Assembly: GCA_964469925.1 (NCBI GenBank)
Contig: CAYXZL010000003.1
Location: forward strand, 40,448 to 104,447
Source of the DNA: an uncultured Candidatus Peribacteria bacterium
GTDB lineage: Bacteria > Patescibacteriota > Gracilibacteria > Absconditabacterales > Absconditicoccaceae
DNA: 64,000 nt
Reading direction: 5' to 3'
Shown here: piece after piece, positions 41,915 through 64,000 of the stretch
Layout: each line of letters begins with the position of its first letter
Position numbering within the stretch: the first letter of the stretch is position 1
Notes under the pieces: model-generated
Told to the model about the DNA's origin: nothing
Databases searched by the model: none
The model's input: the letters and a program-made list of their open reading frames with translations, nothing else
Made by a program: the position numbers and the translations under genes

Positions 41915-43813
41915 CTAGGCTGTGGGAGTCGGTGCCTTTGCTGCAATAGGCGGTCTTGCACGAGTGCCACCCGTATTGTTTCGTAGAGGAACACCGTTTG
42001 TGTTTTTCATGGTATTAAGCCAGCTGATGTACTGTTCAATATTTGCAGAAAGATGTGGGTACTTTTGTTGTAAGGCTCAAGCGGACAATGCACGTTTTTT
42101 TACGCTTATTCCAGGAACCCAGTACTCAGACTTATGATCAAAATAAATTCAAGCTCCACGCCCAATAGTAGAAGTGTTATACTCAAATGCTTGTGCCACA
42201 CGACCATCGCCAGCAAACTCTTTGACAAATTTACAGGTCAAGAGACCAACTCTGACCGCTTCAGTGAGTTTGTTGCCACCATAGCTAAGCGGGAAGTCCT
42301 CAATTGTTATAGTAGTTACACGTCATTGAGCATCTTTGGTGATGTGGAAATCAATACATTGTCACCATGAATTCAGAGTGTAGATGTCGGGGTTGCTCGG
42401 GTTGATGCTAAAGGAAGCATTCCTTTCCATTCCTTGTGCAATGTGGTACTCAGTACCAGTCTTGACGATGTCATCAAGAGTCGTATTGAGTGCGGCGATC
42501 ACAGGATCCCCTTCTGGGTTATCTTGTTTTTCTTGGTTTCCCGGAGTCCATATTCCCAGACTGTTTAAGTAATTCATAAAGCGTATCCTATTGGCTTTTT
42601 CATTGAGACTAGGACAAAGTTCTTTCAGGGTAGACCGGTATCATGCACTGATAGCAAATTCTCCTTCTCACTTTCCACCTTCAACAACAGTTTTCACAAA
42701 AATATCTCCCGATAGCTCCCGATTACTCCAGTTATCTGCAATATAAAATGGTGTCGGTGATGAACATTTGCCAGCAAAACGAGCTTTGAGTGCGTTAACT
42801 AGATTAGCAGCAAAAATGAGTTCTTCGTATTTGCCAAAACCGACATCCAGTCAGGCTATCATTTTTTTATTCTTATCGATTGCAGTACGTTGATTGGTGA
42901 ATGAGCAAATACTAGTAGAAGACTCGTCAAATGTTATTGCTCATCTGTTAGCATTCAGCTCATCTTCATTGATGTGTTCCAATTGTGAGTGGGTATACAA
43001 GAGTGCATCATCAAAGTTTAACTTCTTCTCAAACATATCACCGAAAAGAGGTATTTTCTTGAGATATTTCCAACCAAGTGCTGCTGCAGCTCATCATCAC
43101 ACAAGCCATAGCCAATTTCTACGTAACCAAGACCCTTGTTTCGTACCATTATTGATGACAATATTAACATCGTCTTTATTATCGTCAGAGGAAGACGCAA
43201 CAGACGAAGATTTCTTGCTCCCTCCAAATATCCAACGTCACAGTCATACGACACCAACAAGCAATGATCAGACGATAGCTGTTTTACCGAGAGTGCTGCT
43301 ACTGGTTCGCGTTTCTGTTACTCGCTCTCTAGCAGAACCCAAAAACCCTTTTGGTGGTGGGGGGGCTGCTGGTGTGTGAATCGAAGCTTTTAGTGTAGTC
43401 AATTCCGTAGCATAGTTTTGTGATAATCTCTCTTTGAGAGCAACGTAGTCGGACCTTAGTTGATCAAGTTGTTGCTTGAGCGTAGCATCCAGTGTCATGC
43501 TGGTAAGTTGAACTAATCCAGCATCAATTTCTTTTTCTATAGCAACATAGGCTTGCAGTTTTGCATCTTTCTCTGTAATAGCTTCAGCACGTAAGCTGCC
43601 TAATTCTCTTTCAATAGTTTGAAGACTGCTGAATTTACCTTTAAGTTCTTCTATTTTTTGAGACGCCGTCATAGACATAGCGAAAGCACAGTAAGCAAAA
43701 ACTATCGTATCAATAGTAATCCCAAAGAACACAATTGTCAAAAAGCGAAGAAGAAAATGATAGGACTGCGATAGTGAACGGTTGTTCTCTTTTACTTGCA
43801 ATTCGATTTGCAA
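41915..43813 (-). CDS. membrane-anchored coiled-coil hypothetical protein, up to 632 aa
   Basis: Fragments 43268..43813 and 42362..42577 are in the same frame, and I read the gap without stops. N-terminal hydrophobic helix, then a heptad-like region. Start uncertain (TTG 43813 or ATG 43678). Confidence 0.6.
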
Positions 43814-43886: not shown

Positions 43887-44966
43887 ATGTCAAAAAAAGA
43901 TGAAGTATTACAGGATGCGTTTAGGTCGATCGAAAAGCAATTTGGAAAAGGAGCAATCATGAGGATGGGAGACAGTAGTACAGTAGCGATGGTCAATACC
44001 TTCCATACCTGATCGTATGTGTTAGATATGATCTTGGGTGGGTGATTTCCCGAGTGAAGGGTATTAGAGATCTACGGTCCAGAGTCGTCAGGTAAAACAC
44101 TTATGGCACTACAGGCGATAGCAGAGATACAAAAAAGGTGAGAGTTGTGTGCCTTCATAGACGCTGAGCATGCACTAGATCCAAGTTTCGCGAGATTACT
44201 AGGTGTCGATACAGATAACTTGCTCTTGTCCCAACCAGACTATGGGGAACAAGCTCTCCAGATAGCACAAGAGTTAGCAAAAACAGGAGCGGTAAAACTG
44301 ATAGTCATCGATTCGGTAGCCGCCTTAGTACCAAGAGCAGAGGTGGAGGGCGATATGGGTGACAGTTTTATGGGCTTGCAAGCGAGAATGATGTCTCAGG
44401 GATTGAGAAAACTAACATCCATACTTGCTAAAACAGGAACTACCTGTATCTTCATCAATCAAATCCGTATGAAAATAGGGGTTATGTTTGGTAATCCTGA
44501 AACCACGACAGGAGGTAATGCCCTCAAGTTTTTTTCGTCACAAAGGTTAGAAGTCAGAAAGGGAGAGAAAATAACAGAAGACAAAGAAGAAGTATGATAC
44601 GCTATCAAGGTAAAAGTAGCCAAAAACAAAATAGCACCTCCATTCAAAAAAGCCGAGCTTCCTGTCCGCCGGTGACAGTGATATGATCCAATAGGTGATG
44701 TGATTGAGGCAGGCTTATTATTGGGAGCAATAGCAAGAGCATGAGCATTTTATACTATCGGTAGCGAAAAGATTCAAGGGAAAGAAAGACTCGGTGAATA
44801 TCTCCAAAAAGATCAGAAATTGCTCAATGATCTAGAAAAACATATTCAGACTAAGATCAAACAGATGAGAATGGGAGAAAAGGTTTTGAATGATGCCGCA
44901 CTAGATGATGTACAAATAGAGACAGAGGGTGATGATATGGAAATAGATGAGAGTGGCGAAGAATAG
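43887..44966 (+). CDS. recA: recombinase A, 359 aa
   Basis: GPESSGKT Walker [21 protein letters not shown] and [27 protein letters not shown]. Eight in-frame TGA fall at conserved RecA glycines by my reading. Confidence 0.95.
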
Positions 44967-46063: not shown

Positions 46064-47284
46064 ATGCCAAATCCAGAAGAGAACAAAAAGATCGAATGAG
46101 GACCTGAGAAGTGAGAAACGGGTACTGTAGAGTGAGTGGCTCGCGATCTTACGCCTTGAGACAAGGCGAGGGTAGTAGAAGAGGTGAAGAAAAACTGAAG
46201 AGAGAGCATTCGAACAACAACTACAACTACCACAGTCGAAGAGATGAACTTTGGGCCAGATATTCAATTTCAACCATTAAATCTGGCAACACTTGATATA
46301 ACAAAATTTTCTCCCAAAGCACAAGCATCCATTGAAGCGATCAACGCAGAGCATGAAGCAGGAACAGCGGGAAAAGTGAATAGGCTAGCATACACACGTG
46401 CTCATTACCAGTTACCCTACAATCAGGTTTCTTTGGGTGCGATGAAAAGTAATGCTGAATGGCAGGCACTATGACAAGAAATGCAAAGAGTAATGACACT
46501 CACAGGTGAGGCTATAGTAGACCCAAGCAAAATACAAAATCCAGAGGAGCGGGAGGCACAACAAAAAAAGTTTGTTGCATGATTTCATATAGAGTGAGTT
46601 GCAAGCCCCAAAAACACAAGCTATGTCAGTTCAAATCCCGCCAATCCCTTCCTATGAGACTATAACCTCATGATGGCACAGGGAGAAAGCGACCCCAACA
46701 AGATTGGTCTGCAATGCAATCAAATGCTCGCCTGGGATAGGGCAGAAGTAGCCAGACAGCGACTGGTCGAGGTGGTCGGTGTCCCAGCTGAAAAGGTCTC
46801 AATAAGTAGTACAGCAGTGAGAGAGTTGCCACCTGGCGTAAATGATGCAGATATACCTTGAGTAAATATTGAGGGTGTGTATGGCAGTTTTGATCAAACG
46901 ATTACAAACATCAGCAACGTGTCAGTTGAGGAAGTGAGGTTTAATGACCAAATGGATGTCCCCATTGGCTTCACAAACCTCAAACCAGAAATGAGGGAGC
47001 AATTGAAGGATATCGTTGCACTACCAAACCTCTGATCGTTGGCAGCAATACAGGGGGAATCGCAGGTAGAGTGATATCTCACAGACGGCTATTGGATTTG
47101 GTCAGGTATCTTCCAAAACTGAAAACTGATAAAGGGAAAGATAACCCAATCTACATGATCAGGGAATGTTATCATATCGACTGTTAGAGATCCAGGGATA
47201 GATATTGCATGATTTCTGAAGACTAAGAGAGCCGAGGGTAAGTCAGGTTCACAGGTAGATAAGTTACTCAGTGCGAGTTCATAA
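46064..47284 (+). CDS. hypothetical protein with OmpA/MotB-like peptidoglycan-binding module, 406 aa
   Basis: Fragments 46244 and 46670 are in the same frame. GESDPNKIGLQCNQMLAWDRAEVARQRLVEVVGVPAEKVSISS resembles the OmpA_C core (N..LS..RA..V...L...G). Confidence 0.5.
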
Positions 47285-47833: not shown

Positions 47834-48571
47834 TTACCCTGTAATGATTTTTTCCAAGACAAAACCAACATAATATGCAACGCCAGCAGCTAACGTACCC
47901 AAGATAAGGGTTTCTGCTATAGCCTTTCGTCTACGAGAATGTGTGACGTAACTTTTTAGTCGTCCTATAAAAACGAAAGCACAGGCCGTGAGGATCAACG
48001 AGACGAAAAAGAGTTGCGATTCATCAGTATTACTCAGATAGGACACAACATAGGTCAGCAGGGGGATAAGCCCCAAAATCACGAAAGCAACGAATGTCAT
48101 CGATCAGGTCATAAGGGGTCACTTGTCTGGTTTGCTCATTTCCAATTCCTCTTTCATCATGACATCCACCCACCTATCCTTATCGGCGGTGATAGTGTCG
48201 ATAATCTGTTCAAGCAAGTCGCCGTGAAATCATTTAGATTGGTAAATTTTTCTGATTTCCTCCCTTTCTTTGTCAGGGAGATGGTCAACCTCTCGGTACT
48301 CGGTGGCCAAGCTTTTGGTATAGGCGTCATGCTCTGACTTAGAGGACAGATAGGCTCCTACAGACATAGAAAACCCATCAGCAAAAAGGTTAGCAAATCA
48401 CAAAATAAGCACAACAGACAGGTCTAATTGTGCTCCCGTAGCACCTGCCACGACTGCAAAGGTAGTGACAACACCATCAATCCCTCCATAGACAAACTCA
48501 GGCAAATATTTAGTCCATTTCCCAAGGATATTGACTGATCAGTGGAGATGTGCTTCGTTATGAGAATGCAT
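47834..48571 (-). CDS. VIT1/CCC1-family iron/manganese transporter, 245 aa
   Basis: FVYGGIDGVVTTFAVVAG, LGFANLFADGFSMSVGAYLS and a C-terminal TM bundle. ORF 47834..48100 extended upstream across TGA to ATG 48569-48571. Confidence 0.85.
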
Positions 48572-48603
48572 GCTGCTAAGATATACAAAAAGTTAAATTA
48601 TGA

Positions 48604-48909
48604 TTATATTCAATAATGCTTTTTTAGGTCTGACTTTCGAGAGTCGGGAAGTACTGTTAGAAAATCAGTCCCATAAAGTTCTAATGCAATATCAGCAACA
48701 AGGAAAGAGAGTTCATAGAGGGGCGATGATGTATCCTGAGGAAGATCTCGTCATCATCCCACACTCGTGAGAAACTGGTCCTCTCTAGAATCTTTCGGGC
48801 TTGAGGACAATCGCAGCATCAAACGATCTCTACATCAAAAGTCTCAGGGAATATCGCTACTGAGCTGAGCAAGTCTGTCGAGATACCCTTGCTGGTTAAG
48901 GCTAGTCAT
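48604..48909 (-). CDS. hypothetical protein, 101 aa, start overlapping the giant-ORF stop (ATGACTAG)
   Basis: ATG at 48907-48909 overlaps TAG 48902-48904 of the upstream gene. Frame open with sense TGA to TAA near 48604. Composition only moderately protein-like. The alternative is a 5-prime leader of the VIT gene. Confidence 0.3.
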
Positions 48910-51900
48910 TCGTATTTCAAGTAGCTAAAGTATCATTTACCCTAGAAGGATCATGAGAAGATTCTCATCAACCTTGGTCGCTATCGCGGACTCATCAAGT
49001 ACCTGTTCTTGCTTGGGAAATCGCCTGAGCGACGGGTGGCATCATATGTTCAAGCATATTATTTGCACTGATAAAAATTGCAAGGTGAGACAGAGAGTCG
49101 CCAGACGTAGCAATATGTTGGTACAGAGCAATACGGTCAAGTATATAAAGATATTGACTTTCGTATTTGTCGATCTGATCCGGATAATTATGAATATCAG
49201 AGAGTAATCTTTGGAGACTGGCCATCTCAAAGGCCTGTATATCAAGAATTTGAGCTGGTGTTTTGGTGCCAAGATTGATCAGGTCGTAGGAATAGAGTTC
49301 TGCAAGTTTAGCATAGGCGTCGGCATCTATTTGCTGTCTCTTGAGCTTAAAGCCTTCGACATGATGTCTCACATCCTCTCTGACTTGGGGGTACGCGTTA
49401 AGTGCATCGTTAATATAGCTATTACGTTGGTCTTGATCATGGTTTTGTTTACCAGCAACGATGGCATCTAAGTATCAAACAAATCCATCAACCGTAAGGT
49501 CAGGCCTAAGCATCCCTATTTTGAGCATCCTTCCTCAGGCCTTGTGATATTTCCCTGGCTTCATCACTCAGCGATCATAAGCTGATACGGTAGTAGTATG
49601 ATAGAGTTCAGCGATAAGATTGATGCCGTAGTAGTCAGCTTGTGCTCATTTTTCCAAAAATCTAACAGGCCTATCTCATCACATATCAATATCATAGGTT
49701 GCTGCACCCATAGCCTCACCAGCTAGTGCCGTGCCTTGATCAACAAAAAAGATCTCGAAAGCATAGGGAACAGGTCAGACTTGATAACGTCCTGTGATCT
49801 TTAAGTGTTGATAGCCAGGTTCACGAGAAAGTTCTCAAACAATAAGTTCTAGCTCACCAGCTTGTGGGGGTGGCGTAATAGTCCTGAGAACCCTACCATT
49901 CACATCGGTAATATCAAGTGTTTGAAAATCTGTATCATGAGCTAGATCATGAAGTGCATTCGGAAAGTCGCTAGCTGGAATGCTTGGCTCAACATCTTCA
50001 GGGATAGTATTGTGTTCCGTTCACATAAACAGTGCAGAGCTACCACAGAATACAATATCTTTCACAGACGAAAGAGTGTTGGTAAGTTTTTGTACGGTTG
50101 TATGCCATGCAGTATAATAGTCTGAAGCACTATAGCGGCTGTCTGCATGTGCTGGTAGTCTGAGTGATGCTGGGTTGTTGTTTTTTTGTGCGTAGTGATA
50201 GCCAACATACTGTCACACCAACAACAGATCATTGATATGCGACTGAATAAGACGAACACGTCCAGGATTATTGTCCGTTTTAGCTTGTTCTAGGTCAGCA
50301 TAAAGCTTTTCCAATAATTTCTTTATATGTTCTACTGGAGGAAGCTCAGAATCAAAAAGTTTGAAACTAGCCGCAATAGCAAGAACCCTCTGCAAAATAG
50401 GGTTATCAAGAAGGGACTTCCTAAGATCATGCTCTCGATTAGCGATAGCCTCACGATGTTGGTTGAGAATAGGGAGAATCTCTGCAATTTTGTCCGTAAT
50501 GCGAGTATACAATTCTGATCATGCTAACAAGAGACTGTTGTTTTGTACAAGTGCAATGTTTCCATCAGCAAAGGTAGTGAGCTTGAGATGTTGTTCTTGC
50601 AAAAATGCTTGTAGTGATGTTATTTTGTCAGACAAAAACTGTGAAATATGGTCAAGCCCATCAGACGCCCTGCCGGCGATGCTTTTGAGTAATTGAGGAG
50701 TTTTAGTCACGCCTTCCATAATACCTCCATACAGGATCGTAGAGGATACGACCTGACCAAGGTTTTCTGGTGAGAAGTTGAGTTGCGTAGCTTCTCGAGC
50801 TGCCTGAAACGCATCGCTAATACGTCGTGCTTGATAGCGAAGTTTATTATCAGCACCGCCATCCAAAGGGGGTTCTGATGAAGATGGAGCGTTGAGGGCT
50901 GTTGATCACACAACAGGTTGTGCGTCGGTTCCCACAAAAGTGTTGATCCCCGTCCTCATGACATTAAATGCAGGATCGATCAGGAGGGACTCCCACACAA
51001 GCTCTTGCATGCCAAAACGTAATCATTGAGAAAAAACGTTGCTGCTACCACTCAAAACAGGTGGCATGACTTTGCTTAATCCCAGTGTTGCCCTATGAAC
51101 TATGATATCGCCAGCCAAGTCAAGTACGATTTTGTCCGCTCCATAAGCATTCCCTTGCTGATCAAAGAAGCCGGTAGCATTCATAGCAATATTCCAGACA
51201 TCGTCTGGTGACTTTCCTTCAGCTACAGCACCCAAAAATCAACCAGCAGTAGCTCACAGTCTCGATCAAATAGTAAAGGAAGCAGACGCAACCCAGGGGT
51301 TCTTAGTAACGACAAGAGTAGCAGCAAAAACCAGTGATCATCCCACCAAAGAGCCAATCTGCTGTCCTACTTCGGACCGCCTTCCCTGCTTCCATGCATC
51401 GATAGTTTTTTCGACTCCATCACTGAATTGCTCTCCAAAGCCATCTCTCACGATATCATCAGGGTTTGATCCTTTGGAAAAATCAAGCTTTGTCCCAGTG
51501 AGAGGATTAATAATCACTTGTCTTTGGCTAACACATGAGGGGGGTGGTGAAGCACTGAGGAGAAGTTTGACATAGTCCACATTCATAAAGTAGAGCAACC
51601 TTTCGTTCTGATGATAGTAGTCAGCATAAGCACTTTGTCTTGCTTGTTCATACATTCCTGCTCTGAAAGCCCTTTCCCCAGGCTCTCCTGCGGGACCAAA
51701 GCTCATCTCGGCCTGTTTAACTCTGTCAGGGTAGGCAGCATCACCTTTTGCCTTAAACTCAGCTATTTTTTTATCTCGCTGACTAATGGTGTCAAAGAAC
51801 GAGCTAATGCTTCTGAGGTCAACGTTGTGAAGCTGGAGTTGTTGTAAGGCCTCCATGCGTTGCTGGATATCGCCGTTTTGACTAAGAAATTGCTGTCCAA

Positions 51901-52984
51901 TACGAGTCTCTCTCATGAGAGATAAAAGAGTTTTCCCATCAGATGTCTGCGTAAGTTGAGTTTCATCAAACCAAAACGCCTCGCTGCCCTTGATGGCTTT
52001 TTTGTAAGGACCAAGACGAGTCAGAATGTAGGTCTGCAGCAATGGTCAACAAAATGATGTCGATTCATATTTTTTAGCAATAGTGAGGAGGGAAGAATGA
52101 GGAGCCCGTTTTTCAACAGCAGCAGCGAATTGCTGATCATTGAGACGCATAGTACCCAAATAGAGTTCCAAACTATCACGTGCTATACTGTCAATTGGGA
52201 AACGGGAACGTCCTTGAGAAATAGAAATATATTTGTTTTTGAGGTCTTGGAAATATTGACCGATCTTTTTCATCCTCTCCATATGCAATACGCAATCCTG
52301 GAGGGTATGGTGCGTCATACCTTCTCACTTGTAGTTTTTGTAATCAGGGAAGACGTAAAGATAATGAACAAAGAACACCTGTAAGTTGCGTACAACATAA
52401 GGTAGATAGTCCTGTTTGACAGTAGCACGTGGCAAAAGTCTCGCTATGTCGTCAACACGAAGAGTCGTCCGAGATTCTTTCGTGGGGAATTGTTTGAGAA
52501 TAACGCTCCAATTTGGTACAGTGTCCAAAGATATTCCCATGATTTCAAGGTTTTTCTCGGGAGGAACGGTAGTGGCGACCAATAACTCATCACGATAGTG
52601 CTTGTTAGAGTTTTGTAGTTCGAAGGAGTTAAGGTGTTGGCGAAAGGCGGAGAATTGTTCATACAGGTGGAGTTCATGATCCAGGAGAGGTAAGCCACCA
52701 TCTCAGCGACTAACAATAGACAAAAATTGTTCAGCAAAAGCACGAGATGTTTCATCGAGGCTATCGCAGGTGGCGGGGTTGGAATAGCTATCAAGTAGCT
52801 GTGACAGAGCTTCAAAAAAAGAATGAGCAACATCTCCTGCTTGCTCAATTTCTCATGGGAGTACCGCCAACTCGTGCGGTTCATCCAAGAGTCCCTTTTG
52901 TAGTCACTGCAAAAGCTCATTGTATGAGACAATGTTTTGATCTTCTTGTTGATTCAGTTGTCTAATCTGATCAATAGTGTTCAT
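48902..52984 (-). CDS. giant hypothetical protein, about 1360 aa
   Basis: Seven listed fragments (52325, 52046, 51338, 51023, 50519, 50213, 48995) share one frame, and I read the gaps without TAA/TAG. Central Gly/Ala-rich hydrophobic segment. Start at MNTIDQIRQ (52984). TAG at 48902-48904. Confidence 0.7.
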
Positions 52985-53264
52985 CGAGTCAATCGAGTAA
53001 ACGATTTGCATCATCTTCATCATGAATACGCTCCTGTTCCTCTTGTACGTGGATCTGCTTGATCGTATCGAGTTGCTGCTGCAATGCGTGTTGCATTTTT
53101 TTATTAGCAAGACGGCCAACAGCTGCATTGATCGGCTTCAATACAATATCGAGCATACTGTCAGGGAGATCGTAGTTTTCTACCACGATCAAAAGTGCAT
53201 CTGCACTGTCCCAATACGGTTGCAGCTTAGTCAAAACACGTATAAGTAAGTCCTTTTTGTTCAT
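52962..53264 (-). CDS. hypothetical protein, 100 aa, 3-prime end overlapping the giant ORF start by 23 nt
   Basis: ORF 52989..53264 extends 8 codons past TGA to TAG at 52962-52964. Helical, acidic C-terminus. Confidence 0.5.
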
Positions 53265-53470
53265 GGCTCACATCCAAATGAAGCCACGATAATCATACTG
53301 ACATCTAGCACAAAAAATGAGATACGAGGCTTCCTCAAAGGATCATGTATTGACAGAGGGAGGTTTTGACATGAGCATATGAATGGTGTAGAAAACATGT
53401 CGTTTTTTTGCAATCAAAAAGAGCGGGGACTATAATAGTACTACTTATAGATTTACCTGCTACAGAGCCG

Positions 53471-56400
53471 ATGCGTCGACACAGCCTAGTCAGCTCAGTA
53501 ATAGCCAGCCTATTGCTGGTCAACATTGCGTTTGCACAAAGTTGTGTCATCATGATTGACAGCAACATAAATGAAGATAAGTCGTGATGATATGATGGTT
53601 GCCTAACTGGTTGTATACTGACAGATGCGAACAAGGTAACCGATAACGAACAGAATACCACAGCGATTATGTCGGTACCCGCTGTTGATGGAAAAGGATG
53701 ACAAAGGTTGACAATCAGCTTCCCAACGACGTTCACACCAGGTACGACAATGTGATTTGGTCTGGTAGATGATGCGAAAGCATTGAATTCGTATCTTCCC
53801 TACCTTACGCTGAGAACCTATTACAATGGTGTGAGTAAGGATGTCATAGCTTGATCATCAATATTAGTATCGACCTTGTCTTGACTGCAAAAAACACTTT
53901 CTTTCGTAACTACCACAGAGTTAGACACCATGCAGATAGATGTCGATGCTCCATCTTCATGATCAGCTTTAACACTAAAATTTGACTTCCCCTTTTACTC
54001 CACAGGTAGCTTTACAGGAGACCTAGACGCAGACACAATTCCCGATGTTTGTGATGGTGACCGAGACGGTGATGGGATCGCAAATGGGGCTGATAATTGT
54101 CCCTTGAGCGGAAACGCTCAACAAGAGGATCTTGACGGAGATAGTATAGGAGACATATGTGATGATGACAAAGATGGTGACTCTATTGTTAATAGCGTAG
54201 ATAATTGTGTCAACACAGGTAACAACGATCAGGCTGACCGTGACAATGACAAGGTAGGGGATGTATGTGATAGTGATATCGATGGAGATACAGTCAGTAA
54301 TGATAAAGACAACTGCCCACTCCTAGCAAACAATAATCAAATCGACACAGACAAAGATAGCATCGGAGACGACTGTGATGAGGACAAAGACGGCGATGAA
54401 ATAATAAACGTGGCAGATAATTGTTCCATGAAATCAAATCCACGTCAGGAAGACTTAGATGGTGATGGCATCGGAGACGACTGTGACGATGATCGAGACG
54501 GTGATAATGTAGCTAATAATTGAGACAAGTGCCCACGAAATAATGACCCACAACAGCTTGATACAGATCAAGATGGCTTTGGAGATGCTTGTGATGACGA
54601 TCTTGATGGTGACACGATAAAAAACATAGAGGATAATTGTCCCTGAGCGGTAAATCGAGAACAAGAAGATATGGACTCAGACTGATCGGGAGATGTGTGT
54701 GATGACGATCTCGATGGTGATTCCGTTGCGAACAGCGTCGATAACTGTGATCGTGTGGCCAACCCACAGCAGGTGGATACGGATGCAGACTGATTATGAA
54801 ATGCATGCGATCCAGACAAGGATTGAGACACGATAATGAATGAGAGCGACAACTGCCCCCTCGTGATAAATTCAGATCAAAAAGACAGCGATGCAGATGG
54901 CATCGGCGATCCCTGCGATATTGATCAAGATGCAGATGGGGTTAAGGATAGCGATGACAATTGTATGCTTATCTCAAATCCAGATCAGAAAGATACTGAT
55001 CAGGACGGCTTTGGCGATGTATGTGATGATGATATTGACGGAGACCAAAGAGAAAACGCAGATGACAATTGCCCAACGATCTCCAACCCCGATCAATATG
55101 ACACAGATCAAGATACAATAGGTGACCCCTGTGACAATGACGTAGATGGAGATGGGATAAATAACGCAGACGACAATTGTCCGACCACAGCCAATGAACT
55201 TCAAAACGACAGTGATGGTGATGAGGATGGAGACATGTGTGATGATGATCGTGACGGTGATGGAATTGCTAACATAAATGACAATTGTCCCTATTTTGCG
55301 AATCCTTGACAACAAGATCAAAATCAAAACCTCATAGGAGATGTGTGTGAAGATGATGATGATGGTGATGGAGTTGGTAATGAAAGCGACAACTGTCCTA
55401 AGCTCAGCAATGCAGACCAGCAAGATAGAGATACCGATGGTGTTGGAGATGTCTGTGATACGGATAAGGACAACGACGGAGTGTTAGATGCCATAGACAA
55501 CTGTCCTGTACTTTCCAATCCGGGACAGGTTGATGGAGATGGCAACGGAATAGGTGACAAGTGTGAAACAGACTATGATGGAGATCTAGTATACAATGCA
55601 GAAGATAACTGTCCTAGCAAATATAATCCAAATCAATGAGATCAGGATGGTGATGGAATTGGTGATGAATGCGACAACGATAAGGATGGTGACAAAAGAC
55701 TCAATGCACAGGATAATTGTGTGTGAGTAAGCAATCGACGACAGCACGATATAGATCAAGATGGAATTGGTGATGAGTGCGACGTGGATATGGACAATGA
55801 CGGCATAGTGAACGAGCTAGACAATTGTCAGCGAGTAATAAATAGTGACCAAAAAGACGAAGATGGAGATGGAACCGGAGATGTCTGTCAAGACGATGCT
55901 GACAAGGATTTGATAAACAACGAGCTAGACAATTGTATATTTATTTATAACCCAGATCAAAAAGACAGCGACGCTGATGGCATCGGAGATACATGTGACG
56001 ATGATCTTGATCAAGATGGTTTCCTCAATCAACAGGACAACTGCCCAGTGGCAAACAATCCTACACAAACAGATAATGACAGTGATGGTATAGGAGATAT
56101 CTGTCAGGATGATTATGACGGAGATGGAGTCTGAGATGATCAAGACAACTGTTTAGAGATAGCCAATCCACAGCAGTGAGATAAGGACCTGGATGCTATA
56201 GGAGATTTGTGCGATCCAGACAAAGATGGTGACAAAATAAAAAATAACGCAGACAACTGTCCTAGCATAGCAAACTTTGATCAGAAAGATATCGATGGTG
56301 ATGGAGTCGGCGATAAGTGTGACGCAGATAAGGATAACGATGGTATAGATAATCAGAACGATAATTGTCCCATGATAGCAAACAGCGACCAGAGCGATGA

Positions 56401-57340
56401 AAATGTTGACGGTCAGGGGGATATCTGTCAAGACGATCAGGACGGCGATGGCATAAAAGATGCCAATGATAATTGCCCAACAATTCAAAATATGCTACAA
56501 ACAGACGCAGATCAAGACGGTTTCGGTGATGACTGCGATATCGATAAAGACAACGATGGAATAGATAATCAAAACGACAACTGTCCATGGGTAGTAAACC
56601 CAGACCAAATCGACGAAAACATCAATAAAATCTGAGATGCTTGTGAGGGAGACGACGATTGAGACGGGATAGAAAATGACGTGGATAATTGTCCAATGGC
56701 CTATAATACGGGACAGGTCGATCAAGATTTTGATGAAATAGGAGATATCTGTGACGGTGATAGTGATGGAGACTGACTGGAAAATGGCTTTGATAACTGC
56801 CCTAGTATAGCAAACACAGACCAAATTGATATTGATGAGGATGGTGTAGGAGACGTTTGTGATGATACGATCTATGGTACGGGAGTAGTCAGACTATTGG
56901 ATTATGACATTATATTCGGTACGATAAAAACGAGCAAAACAGCTCAAATTATGAGTGGTCATGTAGCTGGTGATGGACTGATAAAGGTGCAAGATACAGC
57001 AGGAACCAAGCCTCGGTATGTGACGATCGAATTTACCGATATTGTCAATAAAACATACGGTAACAAGATAGATGCCGATAATTGTTTTTATAGAGTGAAT
57101 CCAGATGCTGAAGTGGTGGCGGTAGAAGACTTCTATCCATTACAAGTCTCCAATCATGGTGGAGAGATTGCTCTAGGAGAGCCAGTACAGCTGTTCCATA
57201 GAGATGTGTTGAACGGGCAAAAAGGAACAATGGGTATAGGAACAGCCAGCGGAGCAATCGATATCCGATGCAATATACCACCATTTTTGAAACCATGAGA
57301 GTACGAGTGAGACATTGTTCTCACCCTCATAAGAGACTAA
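53471..57340 (+). CDS. secreted thrombospondin type-3 (calcium-binding) repeat protein, 1289 aa
   Basis: Signal peptide [23 protein letters not shown] and a 180-aa N-domain. About 26 units of DxDxDGxxDxxDNCPxxxNxxQxDxDxDGxGDxCD follow, then a 150-aa non-repeat C-domain. Six listed fragments are in the same frame. Confidence 0.85.
54020..56870 (+). repeat. in-frame tandem array of about 26 degenerate ~108-nt TSP3 repeat units (approximate bounds)
   Basis: The GAYAAYTGYCC (DNCP) core recurs with a regular period. The repeats generate the many spurious antisense ORFs listed at 54455..56824. Confidence 0.8.
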
Positions 57341-61264: not shown

Positions 61265-64000
61265 TTAGTTTCTTGGATTATTGAGGGCATGGTAGTAATT
61301 AACAATATCGCGAACCTCCTCACGAATAGCGACAGAACGAACTCGATCATCAAGCTCTTTACCTGTAGAAGCTGGATTAGGCCTGGGGATGAGTTCAAAG
61401 CTTTTTTGGGTCATGCGGTCACGACCAAAGGGATAGCAGGTTGTGGCACGCCTTGCAAAAGTAATTCAGGGACGAAATGCAGGTCAATCTTGAGGTCTTA
61501 CAGGATTGATAGTACCAAACATGAGATCAGTAAATCAGCTAGCACTAAATGACATGAGAACAGGAGCGGCAGAGTCTCAGCTATGGATACAGGTATCAAG
61601 GAGGAGGGTCGGCTCACCAGCATTGAGATAGAGATTTTTATACCTTGTTTGAAACTCAGTCTGGATGTCCTCAAAGCTTTCTGGCAACGAAAAAGGATCG
61701 CAGGCATTTCCTTTTCTGTTTTGCTCATCAATAATATATCTCGCCTCCTCTTCATCGTACATTTCTTTTGACTTAAATCCCATAGGATTAACAAAATAGA
61801 TTTTAGGCCTTTGTGCTCTGGGCCGCCCTTCCAAGTTCCAGTACCTCATAAGACCCAGTGCCATTGGCCTCATAGAGCGATCAAACAAAACAAGGTTCTT
61901 AATGCCATGAGTCCTAATATAGTCTGAGACACTCACGATGTGTCCATACAGCTCAGCCCTTGCCATCTCAGTGTCGAAGATGTCGTATTGTCTACCATTG
62001 CTATCAGTGTCTGTCTTGCCACAATATCACTCTCTGATCAGCCACGATGCTTGCTCAATCGTCAATCAACCATCAATCAAGATACGCATTTTTCTTGCTA
62101 ACTGCTCAGGTGTATAATTGTAAAGCTTAGCAGGTGTGCCATCTTTACCTTTCTCTCCACTACCAACTTGATGGGCGACCTCAATGAGTTCTTGAAGGGC
62201 AATATCGCTGATGTCGGGGGTCTGTCTGTTGGAAAATTGTTCTTTGAAAGGAGCAACTTTTTGACTCTTATCCAGCTTACTATTGGCTTGTTTACGGATA
62301 CGTTCAGTTTCGATACTATCATCTTCAAGGTCACGTTGAATAACGTCGAGTGCGAGATCTTCTGATACAAGATCTTTTCATCATCTGATAGCAGCATCAG
62401 CTCTTATATCGATACCTGCACCAAGCGATTCACGTAAACGTCTTTTCAGAGACTCTAATGATTTGCCCGTACCAATCGTGTCGTCAATGAGGGTAATATG
62501 AGAAACGCCACGCAAAAATTCGGCAGGAGTTTGAGATGGCGAGATTGCTGTGTAGGAAATCGTCCCATCAGCTTGTCTCTCAAGCACCCATCCATGGTAA
62601 TTGCTATTGGGGTCGCCGTTTTGGTGTGGATCGAGAAAAAACACTTTGTCACCAGTCTTTTTGAGAGATGCTCTCGCACTTTCCATCATAAGGAGCCCAG
62701 CATACAGCATAACGACTGGCGTCCTACCATCTTTGCGACAACGGTCGAAGATGAGTGTTCCCCTCATGTTAAACAGGTCAAATCACTGTCTACTCACTTG
62801 TGCGGCTTTGGCAGCATTGATAGTTCTAGTAGGATCATTGACCGCCTCCAGTGCATTCGTCACAGCAGCTTGATAGTCTGCCTGATCCGTAGCTGTTTTG
62901 TCAGATGATTGGAAAGTTAGATAGGCATCGATGACAGCGTCTTGCTGTGGACCAGCATCAGTATACTTGCAAGCGAAGTAGAATCATAAGTCACCAAACT
63001 TTGGATGAAGAAGATCTGTAATCTCGCTCTTCCCAAACTGAGCTTGTCTGTGTTGAAGTGCATCTAAAGAGCTAGGTGGAAGGAGTGTGGGAATCGACTG
63101 CTCTGGAAGTGTAAAAGCAGAGACAAGAGCGTTTATCGTGTTGATCAGACGCTGTCTGATGGCCCAATCAGTAGGATCCATGTTTTCTATGAGTCAGTTG
63201 TAGATGGAGAGGAGTGTGCTTGCACGTTTTTGCAACTTCTCGAGTTCTCATTTATTTTTAAGGAGTTCTAGTGCTCATCATCATGACGCTCTGGAGGTAG
63301 TCATGGCAGTAAGTGCTATGGTTTCTAAATAATCATCAACTGTGTTGATCTGAAAAACCGTCTGGAAGGTTTGGTTGATGCCAAGGTGCGTAAGATCCAT
63401 GATCCCATTAGTCAAGAGCTCTTCACTAATTTCTCCTACCACTTCGTAACCAAACCTTTTGACAATCTCACGTTTGGTCATATCTCCCAAATATTTGCTC
63501 ATGTATCAGCCAGAGAGTTTTTCTCAGACTAGGCTTTCTACGACACCATCGACGCTACTAGCAAAAAAGGCATATTCTGCAGCTCAAGCTCACGTTAGTC
63601 CGCTATTGATAGCAAGTGTAAGGTTGTCGTCTAAGCGACCAAAATAGGCCCATCACAGCTTCCCAAGTACATCAGAACTAGGGGGTATATACTCCGCAAC
63701 GACACCAGCACGGACCAAGAGTGATTCAGCCTGTTCGGAGAGGAACCTAGCTCCTGTCCTCATGAGGAGAAAGTCAGTGTAGGCACTTTCTGTTTTATAA
63801 AAAAGTGATCAGATGTTCCAACTCCCGTCAGGGTTGACAAGAGGGGTAGAGGCCATGACTGATGCTGGCGTGGTAATAATGCCAGTAGTCTTACTAAACA
63901 GATTTCCTTTGTTCCAATCATCAATCATCTGAGCTTCATATTTATCGTCTGATAGCCATTTTGCCCCAGCAACACTCAAGTCATAGGGAGATTTGAGTGT
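61265..64000 (-). CDS. giant hypothetical protein with two PRTase-like modules; N-terminus beyond the right edge (more than 911 aa visible)
   Basis: Fragments 63281, 62984, 62381 and 61577 share one frame, open to position 64000. TAA at 61265-61267. HITLIDDTIGTGKSL and TLLLDTCIHSGDS resemble type-I phosphoribosyltransferase PRPP loops. Confidence 0.7.

Follow-up and report, generated by a model that had tools for sequence, protein, structure and literature searches.

A conserved small acidic protein gene paired with giant, hairpin-bearing proteins of exchangeable C-terminal heads, a possible polymorphic effector-like system of code-25 CPR bacteria

In the T7SSb of Firmicutes, polymorphic LXG toxins are paired with small helical Lap/WXG100-like targeting factors, and the AesA-AesB pair of Actinomycetaceae is analogous to these LXG/Lap pairs (PMC13622651, a preprint on oral Patescibacteria and their hosts). 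The locus described here resembles these systems in that a gene for a small α-helical protein (about 100 aa) lies beside that of a large, putative effector, and further in its helical N-terminal region, its variable C-terminal head with a downstream gene that may be head-specific, and the presence of several pairs per genome. In polymorphic toxin systems, a conserved N-terminal part is combined with recombining C-terminal enzymatic heads (Zhang, Aravind et al. 2012, PMC3482391), as appears to be the case here. A further parallel is offered by the prePAAR/Rhs proteins of the T6SS and their Eag (DUF1795) partners, in which a small chaperone-like gene likewise lies directly upstream of a large protein with hydrophobic helices that must be shielded until delivery, and another by epsilon/zeta toxin-antitoxin systems, in that one related giant (genome G164) has a Zeta_toxin domain at its C-terminal end and a dedicated gene next to it on the downstream side. 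Absconditabacteria/Gracilibacteria are obligate epibionts or predators with genomes of about 1 Mb, and to our knowledge next to nothing has been learned about the means by which they attack hosts or manipulate them.

The window, that is, the whole stretch of 64,000 nucleotides analysed, contains no giant ORF under table 11, the longest ORF in the region being 234 aa. When TGA was read as sense, the ORF coverage of the window rose sharply, and all eight in-frame TGA codons of recA (43887-44966) were found to align to Gly residues of E. coli RecA (8/8), so that the genetic code is table 25 (TGA = Gly); the table 11 reading was dropped in its favour. Under code 25, and only under it, the three ORFs exist exactly as first described, as overlapping genes of 100, 1360 and 101 aa. 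The features are as follows.

53264..52962, minus strand: gene A, 100 aa, 2 TGA; acidic (pI 4.8) helical protein of a lineage-specific family
52984..48902, minus strand: gene B, giant protein of 1360 aa, 27 TGA (= Gly)
52820..52984, minus strand: B residues 1-55, N-terminal leader common to all A-linked giants, from an alignment of 14 giants
51065..51592, minus strand: B residues ~465-640, conserved subfamily core, from alignments of the subfamily
51215..51367, minus strand: B residues ~540-590, Gly/Ala-rich hydrophobic helical hairpin, from hydropathy and model
50210..51064, minus strand: B residues ~641-925, helical region that follows the hairpin, common to B and its relatives as far as ~921, with helices from the model
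48905..50209, minus strand: B residues ~926-1360, orphan head with a Gly/Ser/Asp-rich tail, probably disordered
48909..48604, minus strand: ORF C, 101 aa, 5 TGA
47834..48571, minus strand: VIT1-family metal transporter gene (Pfam VIT1, E=7e-63), 32 nt downstream of C

The stop codon of A, a TAG at 52964-52962, lies 23 nt inside B, and the B stop and C start are contained in ATGACTAG at 48909-48902, an overlap of 8 nt; both overlaps had been proposed in the original prediction and are borne out. With TGA as Gly the giant ORF is not split by misread stops. The codon-usage log-odds in these frames were coding-like (A 0.28, B 0.18 and C 0.09), as referred to a mean of 0.167 (sd 0.093) for coding chunks of the genome and an off-frame 95th percentile of -0.134. 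For both genes a longer start was considered, at TTG 53417 for A and at TTG 53146 for B, and these were ruled out by codon usage, the upstream extensions scoring non-coding-like, and by the start in the 66%-identical relative L042, whose giant overlaps its A gene by 8 nt. The giant of L042 begins at the same Met ('MTSIDQ' vs 'MNTIDQ'), which confirms the start of B at 52984.

Homologs of A (pairwise E=2e-12), typically of about 95 aa, carry 'KKxLLxxVLxKLxPY(W/R)xxA' in their N-terminal part and, at the C-terminus, an acidic tail of the form '(D/E)ExxDxLL'. Within the taxonomic family to which the window belongs, 119 of 141 genomes have the A family, in 1-5 copies per genome, and in a survey of the class it occurred in 40 of 301 genomes, confined to families f1, f22 and f30. 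At 15 of the 16 loci inspected, the ORF that directly follows A is a giant one (803-2950 aa), with A homologs directly 5' of a giant in genomes G016, G015, G164, G288, G426, G412, G457, G256, G386, G397, G157, G041, G348 and G243. Within the class, the B core has the same limits as A, occurring in f1, f22 and f30 only, and A and B are, as judged by sequence comparison, a real conserved pair. The chromosomal neighbours of the pair differ in every other genome, as would be expected for a conflict-type module.

The leader of about 55 aa also occurs on giants without the rest of the B body or the B core; it alone was matched 20-35 nt downstream of A copies in G243, G439 and G261, and the G243 locus was also inspected directly. 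The B core carries, in order, 'YVKxLL..P.P' and 'LDFSK...(I/V)VR(D/N)xFxExFSDG', followed by the hydrophobic hairpin, 'NPW', the Gly-zipper 'TxGxRLGxxxG', 'QGN' and 'LDLaGD', and the distant matches in families f22 and f30 consist of this core only. We found that the central Gly/Ala-rich hydrophobic stretch noted earlier in the giant is real: the Kyte-Doolittle peak of B falls at residues 539-562, and the model places a helical hairpin there, with helices at 536-559 and 563-588. This hairpin is the sole membrane-like segment of B, and no N-terminal signal peptide is apparent from the sequence. The body of about 900 aa is all-helical in a structure model of residues 1-930 (13 sequences, pLDDT 62), for which a Foldseek search against PDB gave no match (best E 0.097). 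In a BLASTP comparison of P0002 with P0006, residues 53-921 matched at E=1e-33, after which the proteins diverged. The B subfamily is patchy: of the 141 family genomes 12 have it, and of the 43 genera 8.

Searches of Pfam, NCBIfam, PHROGs, PADLOC, PDB sequences and PDB profiles gave nothing significant for A, B or C, apart from a weak match of the hairpin to phrog_21759 (E=0.006). A word-based search of 5.8 billion proteins returned only the window's own protein, full-length at 97% identity, in a version that reads TGA as another residue. HMMER with B against 1.84 billion representatives gave 6 matches, all in the N-terminal part or the core, and a scan of genome contigs gave only two loci, both already known. 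Two papers on these lineages contain no description of the A-giant family.

The last ~430 residues of B, its head, had no match in Pfam, NCBIfam, PDB, the representative library or metagenome contigs, and no recognised toxin domain was found in it among families, PDB and library. The string 'VFCGSSALFMG' is present in the head at residues ~984-994 and is followed by acidic residues ('…EDVE'), as had been pointed out together with a faint resemblance to nucleotidyltransferases; set against the catalytic motif of the α/β NTase fold, hG[GS]…[DE]h[DE]h, this 'CGSS…EDVE' string had no Pfam or PDB match, and the single-sequence AlphaFold model of the head was unusable (pLDDT 37). In relatives, the heads are a kinase of the Zeta-toxin type, an HATPase_c domain or an HD-like phosphohydrolase, the window's head being an orphan. 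The giant of G164 ends in Zeta_toxin (38.7 bits vs a cut-off of 22.3), a HATPase_c head was detected at E=4e-13, and the giants of G288 and G412 have a common HD-like head (E=7e-56), with a different head in G426, a member of the same genus as G412. The comparisons show C-terminal heads that are exchangeable on a shared body. Several relatives carry, just before the head, a module of about 80 aa with the pattern '…AH…ENGICG', which is absent from B; the reading of 'VFCGSS' as a degenerate form of this module was ruled out (hhalign probability 0.05).

The downstream ORF is also shared between G288 and G412 (E=1e-9) and differs between G426 and G412, suggesting that head and downstream ORF change in step; this is the only informative comparison, with a single positive pair and a single contrast. 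In G164 the ORF behind the Zeta head encodes an HD_4 hydrolase, and the G457 locus is followed by HicA-like and RHH/NikA-like ORFs. ORF C itself is acidic, and codon usage in all other frames is -0.25 or lower. No homolog of C was found in the 141 family genomes, and C shows no similarity to the downstream ORFs of other loci, so that the trio is not kept as a conserved neighbourhood. With codon usage as its sole support, C is an unconfirmed candidate immunity or accessory gene; since it is an orphan, an immunity role can only be inferred. A TATAAT box overlaps the C stop, and a terminator scan predicted no terminator between C and the VIT1 gene, which is probably an unrelated neighbour. A yybP-ykoY (Mn) riboswitch leader was considered for the C region and rejected, as cmscan of 48300-49300 (E<=10) gave no such Rfam match, only two chance snoRNA-like matches.

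Machinery related to export was sought in the whole genome, which is 96% complete. The search with PF06013 (WXG100) gave 0 matches, and that with PF01580 a single complete domain (C2:70110-70625), which would fit FtsK itself, besides two short fragments of the P-loop; neither an EssC/EccC multi-FtsK ATPase nor VirB4 was found. No T7SS or T4SS machinery was detected in the genome, and no known export route for B was found among signal peptide, WXG100, EssC and VirB4.

These data set the locus apart from each of the systems that it resembles. Unlike in T7SSb, Pfam detects no LXG domain (PF04740) in B and 10 related giants, and no WXG100, DUF3130 or DUF3958 match in the A family; the window's genome has neither a WXG100 gene nor a multi-FtsK EssC/EccC, the giants are much larger and contain an internal Gly-zipper hairpin, and there is one upstream partner only. 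The likeness to polymorphic toxins extends to the Zeta_toxin head of one relative, the downstream gene that appears to change with the head, the patchy distribution and the ENGICG module of relatives, which sits in the position of a pre-toxin domain. However, known trafficking domains and pre-toxin modules were not detected here, B lacks the ENGICG module, and the head and downstream ORF of the window are both orphans. With respect to the T6SS, the hairpin of B is central (~540-590) and not N-terminal as in prePAAR effectors, and no T6SS family, PAAR and Rhs included, came up in Pfam scans of the giants. The fold of Eag chaperones is rich in β-structure, whereas A is acidic and helical, and we know of no T6SS in CPR bacteria. 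As for epsilon/zeta, the window's B has no Zeta domain, and in G164 Zeta forms the exchangeable head of a giant protein with a membrane hairpin rather than a free toxin, its partner being an HD_4 hydrolase and not an epsilon antitoxin.

We favour, tentatively and at a little short of even confidence, the explanation that the locus encodes an effector-like giant of a polymorphic kind together with its own small targeting/chaperone partner, and is one copy of a lineage-specific two-part system of code-25 CPR bacteria. The small A is made together with the giant through the overlapping genes; it may bind the leader and serve the giant specifically, as chaperone or as targeting factor. The hairpin may insert the giant into a membrane, either that of its own cell or that of a host or prey cell; the head would be an enzymatic effector or toxin, and the small ORF after the giant, here C, a head-specific protector. 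The comparison with an effector system made in the original prediction for a giant with small coupled partners gains support for the upstream A, given its conserved family, its place directly 5' of giants at 15 of 16 loci and the swappable heads including Zeta_toxin, but not for C. Against an effector stand the export machinery that was sought and not found in the genome, the missing signal peptide of B, the window's own head with no recognisable toxin domain, the occurrence of HATPase_c, kinase and HD domains in ordinary signalling proteins as well, and an A paralog in the window's genome (C14:15314-15571) with no giant downstream. A more specific proposal, which we consider distinctly doubtful, is that A and the leader form the recognition signal of an undescribed export or contact-dependent pathway, by which epibionts or predators of a few code-25 CPR families of the Absconditabacterales type would deliver giant enzymatic effectors with swappable heads into the host membrane or cytoplasm.

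Among the rival explanations, the one that survives best, although in our view still unlikely, is that the giant acts as a scaffold or in signalling and resides in the producer's own membrane, anchored by the hairpin, its large helical domains being cytoplasmic and its enzymatic head (kinase, ATPase or phosphohydrolase) serving envelope or host-attachment physiology, with A as an assembly or stabilising subunit and the downstream ORFs unrelated. With a two-helix hairpin as its only hydrophobic segment and no signal peptide, both large domains of B may stay in the cytoplasm; the undetected secretion system, heads that are generic nucleotide-using enzymes, and the lack of conservation of C point the same way. 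Giant membrane proteins are also reported as typical of Vampirococcus, where they are interpreted as attachment proteins (PMC8080830). On the other hand, a patchy B subfamily and a multi-copy A do not fit a core housekeeping role, heads are swapped among close relatives while the body is kept, one of them is a Zeta_toxin domain, and the downstream ORF appears to change with the head in the single case that is informative. It is improbable, we consider, that A is a general small regulatory or translational-coupling leader gene with no physical link to the giant, serving only to load ribosomes onto very long downstream ORFs or to regulate their expression, and that C is a spurious ORF upstream of VIT1, in its 5' region. 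The standalone paralog of A, the absence of a recognisable domain in A and the orphan status of C would agree with this, but the A protein sequence is conserved across three families, including its acidic C-terminal tail, and its co-occurrence with the leader motif on the giant N-terminus argues for a protein-protein relationship, while the codon usage of C is coding-like in a single frame and its region matches no Rfam family. Least probable of all is that the pair is part of a mobile element, with the giant as a phage or conjugative polyvalent or tape-measure-like protein, equipped with a membrane hairpin and various enzymatic domains and delivered with DNA, and A as its chaperone: Zeta-like kinases and other enzymes reportedly occur on very large polyvalent proteins (Iyer et al. 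2017), the hairpin has its weak phrog_21759 match, the G016 HATPase head matches PHROG families, the G457 locus has HicA-like and RHH/NikA-like ORFs, the distribution is patchy and the contexts of insertion vary, but the window locus lies among chromosomal genes (recA, GNAT, VIT1, ATP-citrate lyase) with no phage or conjugative gene set around it, among 10 neighbouring genes Pfam gave no match to an integrase, portal, terminase, relaxase or tail family, the locus shows no compositional anomaly, A and B have no significant PHROG match, and VirB4 is absent from the genome.

Taken together, the analysis yields four new sequence elements, the A family, the N-terminal leader, the membrane-hairpin body and the pre-head 'ENGICG' module, none of which is in Pfam and which together mark multi-copy loci of giants with exchangeable enzymatic heads. 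If the giants are effectors, as we tentatively prefer, the A gene would be a simple genomic handle with which to catalogue the weapon repertoire of these bacteria, and, as no known secretion system was found, delivery by a route not yet described would be indicated. If they are instead resident membrane scaffolds, they would still be a major uncharacterised component of the proteome of these reduced genomes.

In the region 48604-53264, short ORFs only were found under the standard bacterial code. Once TGA was allowed as a sense codon, the coverage of the window by long ORFs, 27% before, exceeded 100%. In the recA gene of the window (43887-44966), each of the eight in-frame TGA codons aligned with glycine of E. 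coli RecA, indicating, as judged from this alignment, that the source organism uses code 25 (TGA = Gly). Its genome is that of a CPR bacterium, 1.17 Mb in size and 96% complete. The original prediction had claimed three overlapping genes at this site, and with code 25 these are present exactly as described:

53264-52962, minus strand: A, the small upstream gene, 100 aa
52984-48902, minus strand: B, the giant gene, 1360 aa, with 27 TGA codons
48909-48604, minus strand: C, the small downstream ORF, 101 aa

The overlap between A and B is 23 nt long, and that between B and C has the sequence ATGACTAG. The codon-usage log-odds, trained on the long ORFs of the genome, were 0.28, 0.18 and 0.09 for A, B and C, respectively, in these frames, as compared with an off-frame 95th percentile of -0.13. 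Longer upstream starts were considered, and the log-odds argued against them. A short metagenomic contig carries a relative with 66% identity, whose giant starts at the same methionine as B and shares 8 nt with its A gene.

Relatives were sought by whole-genome searches reading through TGA. Within the same family, 12 of 141 genomes, from 8 of 43 genera, had relatives of the first ~920 residues of B, as did a few genomes from two further families. For nine relatives the upstream region was readable, and all nine have a homolog of A (92-106 aa) directly upstream, overlapping the giant or within ~30 nt of it, with the exception of one gap of 365 nt. A search with the A profile detected A in 119 of the 141 family genomes, at one to five copies each and roughly 300 genes in total, and in 40 of 301 genomes of a class-wide sample, all in the three families where the conserved core of B was also seen. 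When 16 A loci were inspected, a giant ORF directly followed in 15, being 803-2950 aa in length or still open where the retrieved DNA ended; the remaining locus is a weaker paralog from the same genome as the window. This paralog (C14:15314-15571, minus strand, outside the window) has the sequence MKSKKEYLIKLLTGLQ…ADEYLASKIDNL and no giant following; downstream lie a tRNA-like stretch, an ORF for a TrmB-like regulator and, ~1 kb away, an 802-aa ORF.

The giants of two genomes, G157 and G041, showed no detectable similarity to the body of B, that is, the helical part common to relatives. An N-terminal leader of ~55 aa, M..IL.QID…I…E(L/I)…(F/L)D…L..EL, was common to all 14 aligned giants, and the leader alone was matched 20-35 nt downstream of A copies in three further genomes. 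Since the leader is kept in all 14 giants despite the lack of the B body in G157 and G041, the alignment indicates that the invariant module is A plus leader, set in front of different bodies. The leader of several giants (alignment A8; for example, L075:542-751 and L014:8484-8693) contains a string fitting an EF-hand/dockerin-type Ca-binding loop, D-x-N-x-D-x-x-I-x-x-x-E, as in DRNKDIAITGQE and DKNQDKDILLPE, and that of the window has a degenerate copy; no Pfam EF-hand match was found.

The 1360 residues of B were divided as follows:

Residues 1-55: leader
Residues ~56-465: helical region
Residues ~465-640: conserved core, with the motifs YVKxLL..P.P and LDFSK…VRDxFxExFSDG, after which come a hydrophobic helix, the motif NPW and the Gly-zipper helix TxGxRLGxxxG
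Residues ~641-925: second helical region, common to relatives
Residues ~926-1360: orphan head, the variable C-terminal end

An AlphaFold model of the body, built from 13 sequences, was all-α, with a mean pLDDT of 62 and stretches of 70-90; Foldseek detected no significant similarity between this model and PDB entries (best E 0.097). The original prediction had seen a faint likeness to nucleotidyltransferase folds in the head, of which the single-sequence model, with a pLDDT of 37, was unusable. Searches with A, B and C in Pfam, NCBIfam, PADLOC and the PDB sequences gave no significant match, and their sole PHROG match was a weak one on the hairpin of B; A-family and B-body profiles likewise found nothing in the PDB. 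Among 5.8 billion proteins, a word-indexed search retrieved the window's own protein alone. Full HMMER searches against 1.84 billion representatives yielded six hits; each is a fragment or a relative of the N-terminal and core parts of B, and none extends over its last ~430 residues. The published work on these lineages that was consulted does not describe the A/B family, and treats giant membrane proteins in general terms or leaves them out.

We found that the heads following the common body differ between relatives:

G016: HATPase_c
G164: Zeta_toxin kinase, above the Pfam cut-off
G288 and G412: heads alike, with an HD-like domain (E=7e-56)
G426, G457 and the window: heads without an assigned domain

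An A-linked giant of G041 without the B core (L078 8385-12161, 1258 aa) gave a weak C-terminal match to a calcineurin-like phosphoesterase (Metallophos, 22.3 bits vs a cut-off of 21.5). In several relatives (L004 of G016, L014 of G288, L035 of G412, and P0015), the head is preceded by a recurring module of ~80 aa, …LTxxQxKAIxDAH…Y…EI…K…L…AGF…Q.R.LMENGICG, which stands where a pre-toxin or processing domain would be expected. The G016 giant has two copies, and the module is absent from Pfam and from the window's B. G288 and G412 have homologous downstream ORFs (E=1e-9), in step with their common head, and G426, of the same genus as G412, has another head and another downstream ORF; in G164, the Zeta head is followed by an HD_4 hydrolase. 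Such co-variation, seen in very few cases, would fit the pattern of polymorphic toxin/immunity cassettes. Directly downstream of the 2462-aa giant of G457 lie a HicA-toxin-like ORF (E=1.6e-4) and an RHH/NikA-like ORF (L036 8172-8827), which may represent a toxin-antitoxin pair or a hint of a mobile element.

The proposal that all three genes form a coupled module held for the upstream partner, conserved in 119 of 141 genomes, but not for C, which had no homolog in the 141 related genomes and no similarity to the downstream ORF of any other locus. A VIT1 gene lies 32 nt downstream of C. We considered the C region as a riboswitch leader of VIT1; no Rfam family matches there, and coding-like codon usage appears in the C frame only, so that C is a plausible but unproven candidate gene. 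A perfect TATAAT box overlaps the C stop codon (48572-48620, minus strand) and lies ~35 nt ahead of the start codon of VIT1, suggesting that VIT1 may have its own promoter within the end of C. On the other side, a ~80-nt intergenic region is common to A and a divergent gene (53345-57340, plus strand) for a 1331-aa protein, probably a surface stalk that binds Ca, in which 26 thrombospondin type-3 repeats were matched (Pfam TSP_3, E=1e-239). Elsewhere in the window, the ORFs at 41915-43678 (minus strand, 587 aa), 46064-47284 (plus strand, 406 aa) and 61265-63928 (minus strand, 887 aa) had no Pfam match at E<=0.001.

The translational coupling of A and B, the family-wide conservation of A and the leader, the conserved hydrophobic hairpin and the exchangeable enzymatic heads are established. 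One possible explanation is that A would serve as a chaperone or targeting factor by binding the leader, the hairpin would insert into a membrane, the head would act as an effector, and the product of the downstream ORF would protect the producer. We favor this effector-type reading tentatively, its chance as a whole being somewhat short of even. The main rival, that B resides in the membrane as a scaffold and keeps its domains in the cytoplasm of the producer, is unlikely but to be taken seriously, as B has no signal peptide and no T7SS or T4SS machinery was found in the 96%-complete genome (no WXG100, no VirB4 and one true FtsK domain only). A purely regulatory role of A is improbable, as its protein sequence is conserved together with the leader. 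Least probable of all is a polyvalent protein of a mobile element, given the chromosomal neighbors (recA, GNAT, VIT1 and ATP-citrate lyase) and the lack of significant matches to viral families.

The nearest known parallel is found in the T7SS, in which LXG-type effectors are accompanied by small helical Lap or WXG100-like targeting factors; a 2026 preprint used this arrangement to recognize new Esx substrates (PMC13622651). Every defining feature of the T7SS class that was tested fails at this locus. The broader likeness is to polymorphic toxin systems (PMC3482391), whose variable-head architecture is seen here. A recognized toxin domain was not found in B, nor was a known trafficking route. 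The system of A and its giants may be a variation on the theme of an effector with a small helical partner. The finding generalizes beyond this locus, in that giant proteins which occur in several copies and have interchangeable heads are marked by a lineage-specific module of A plus leader.
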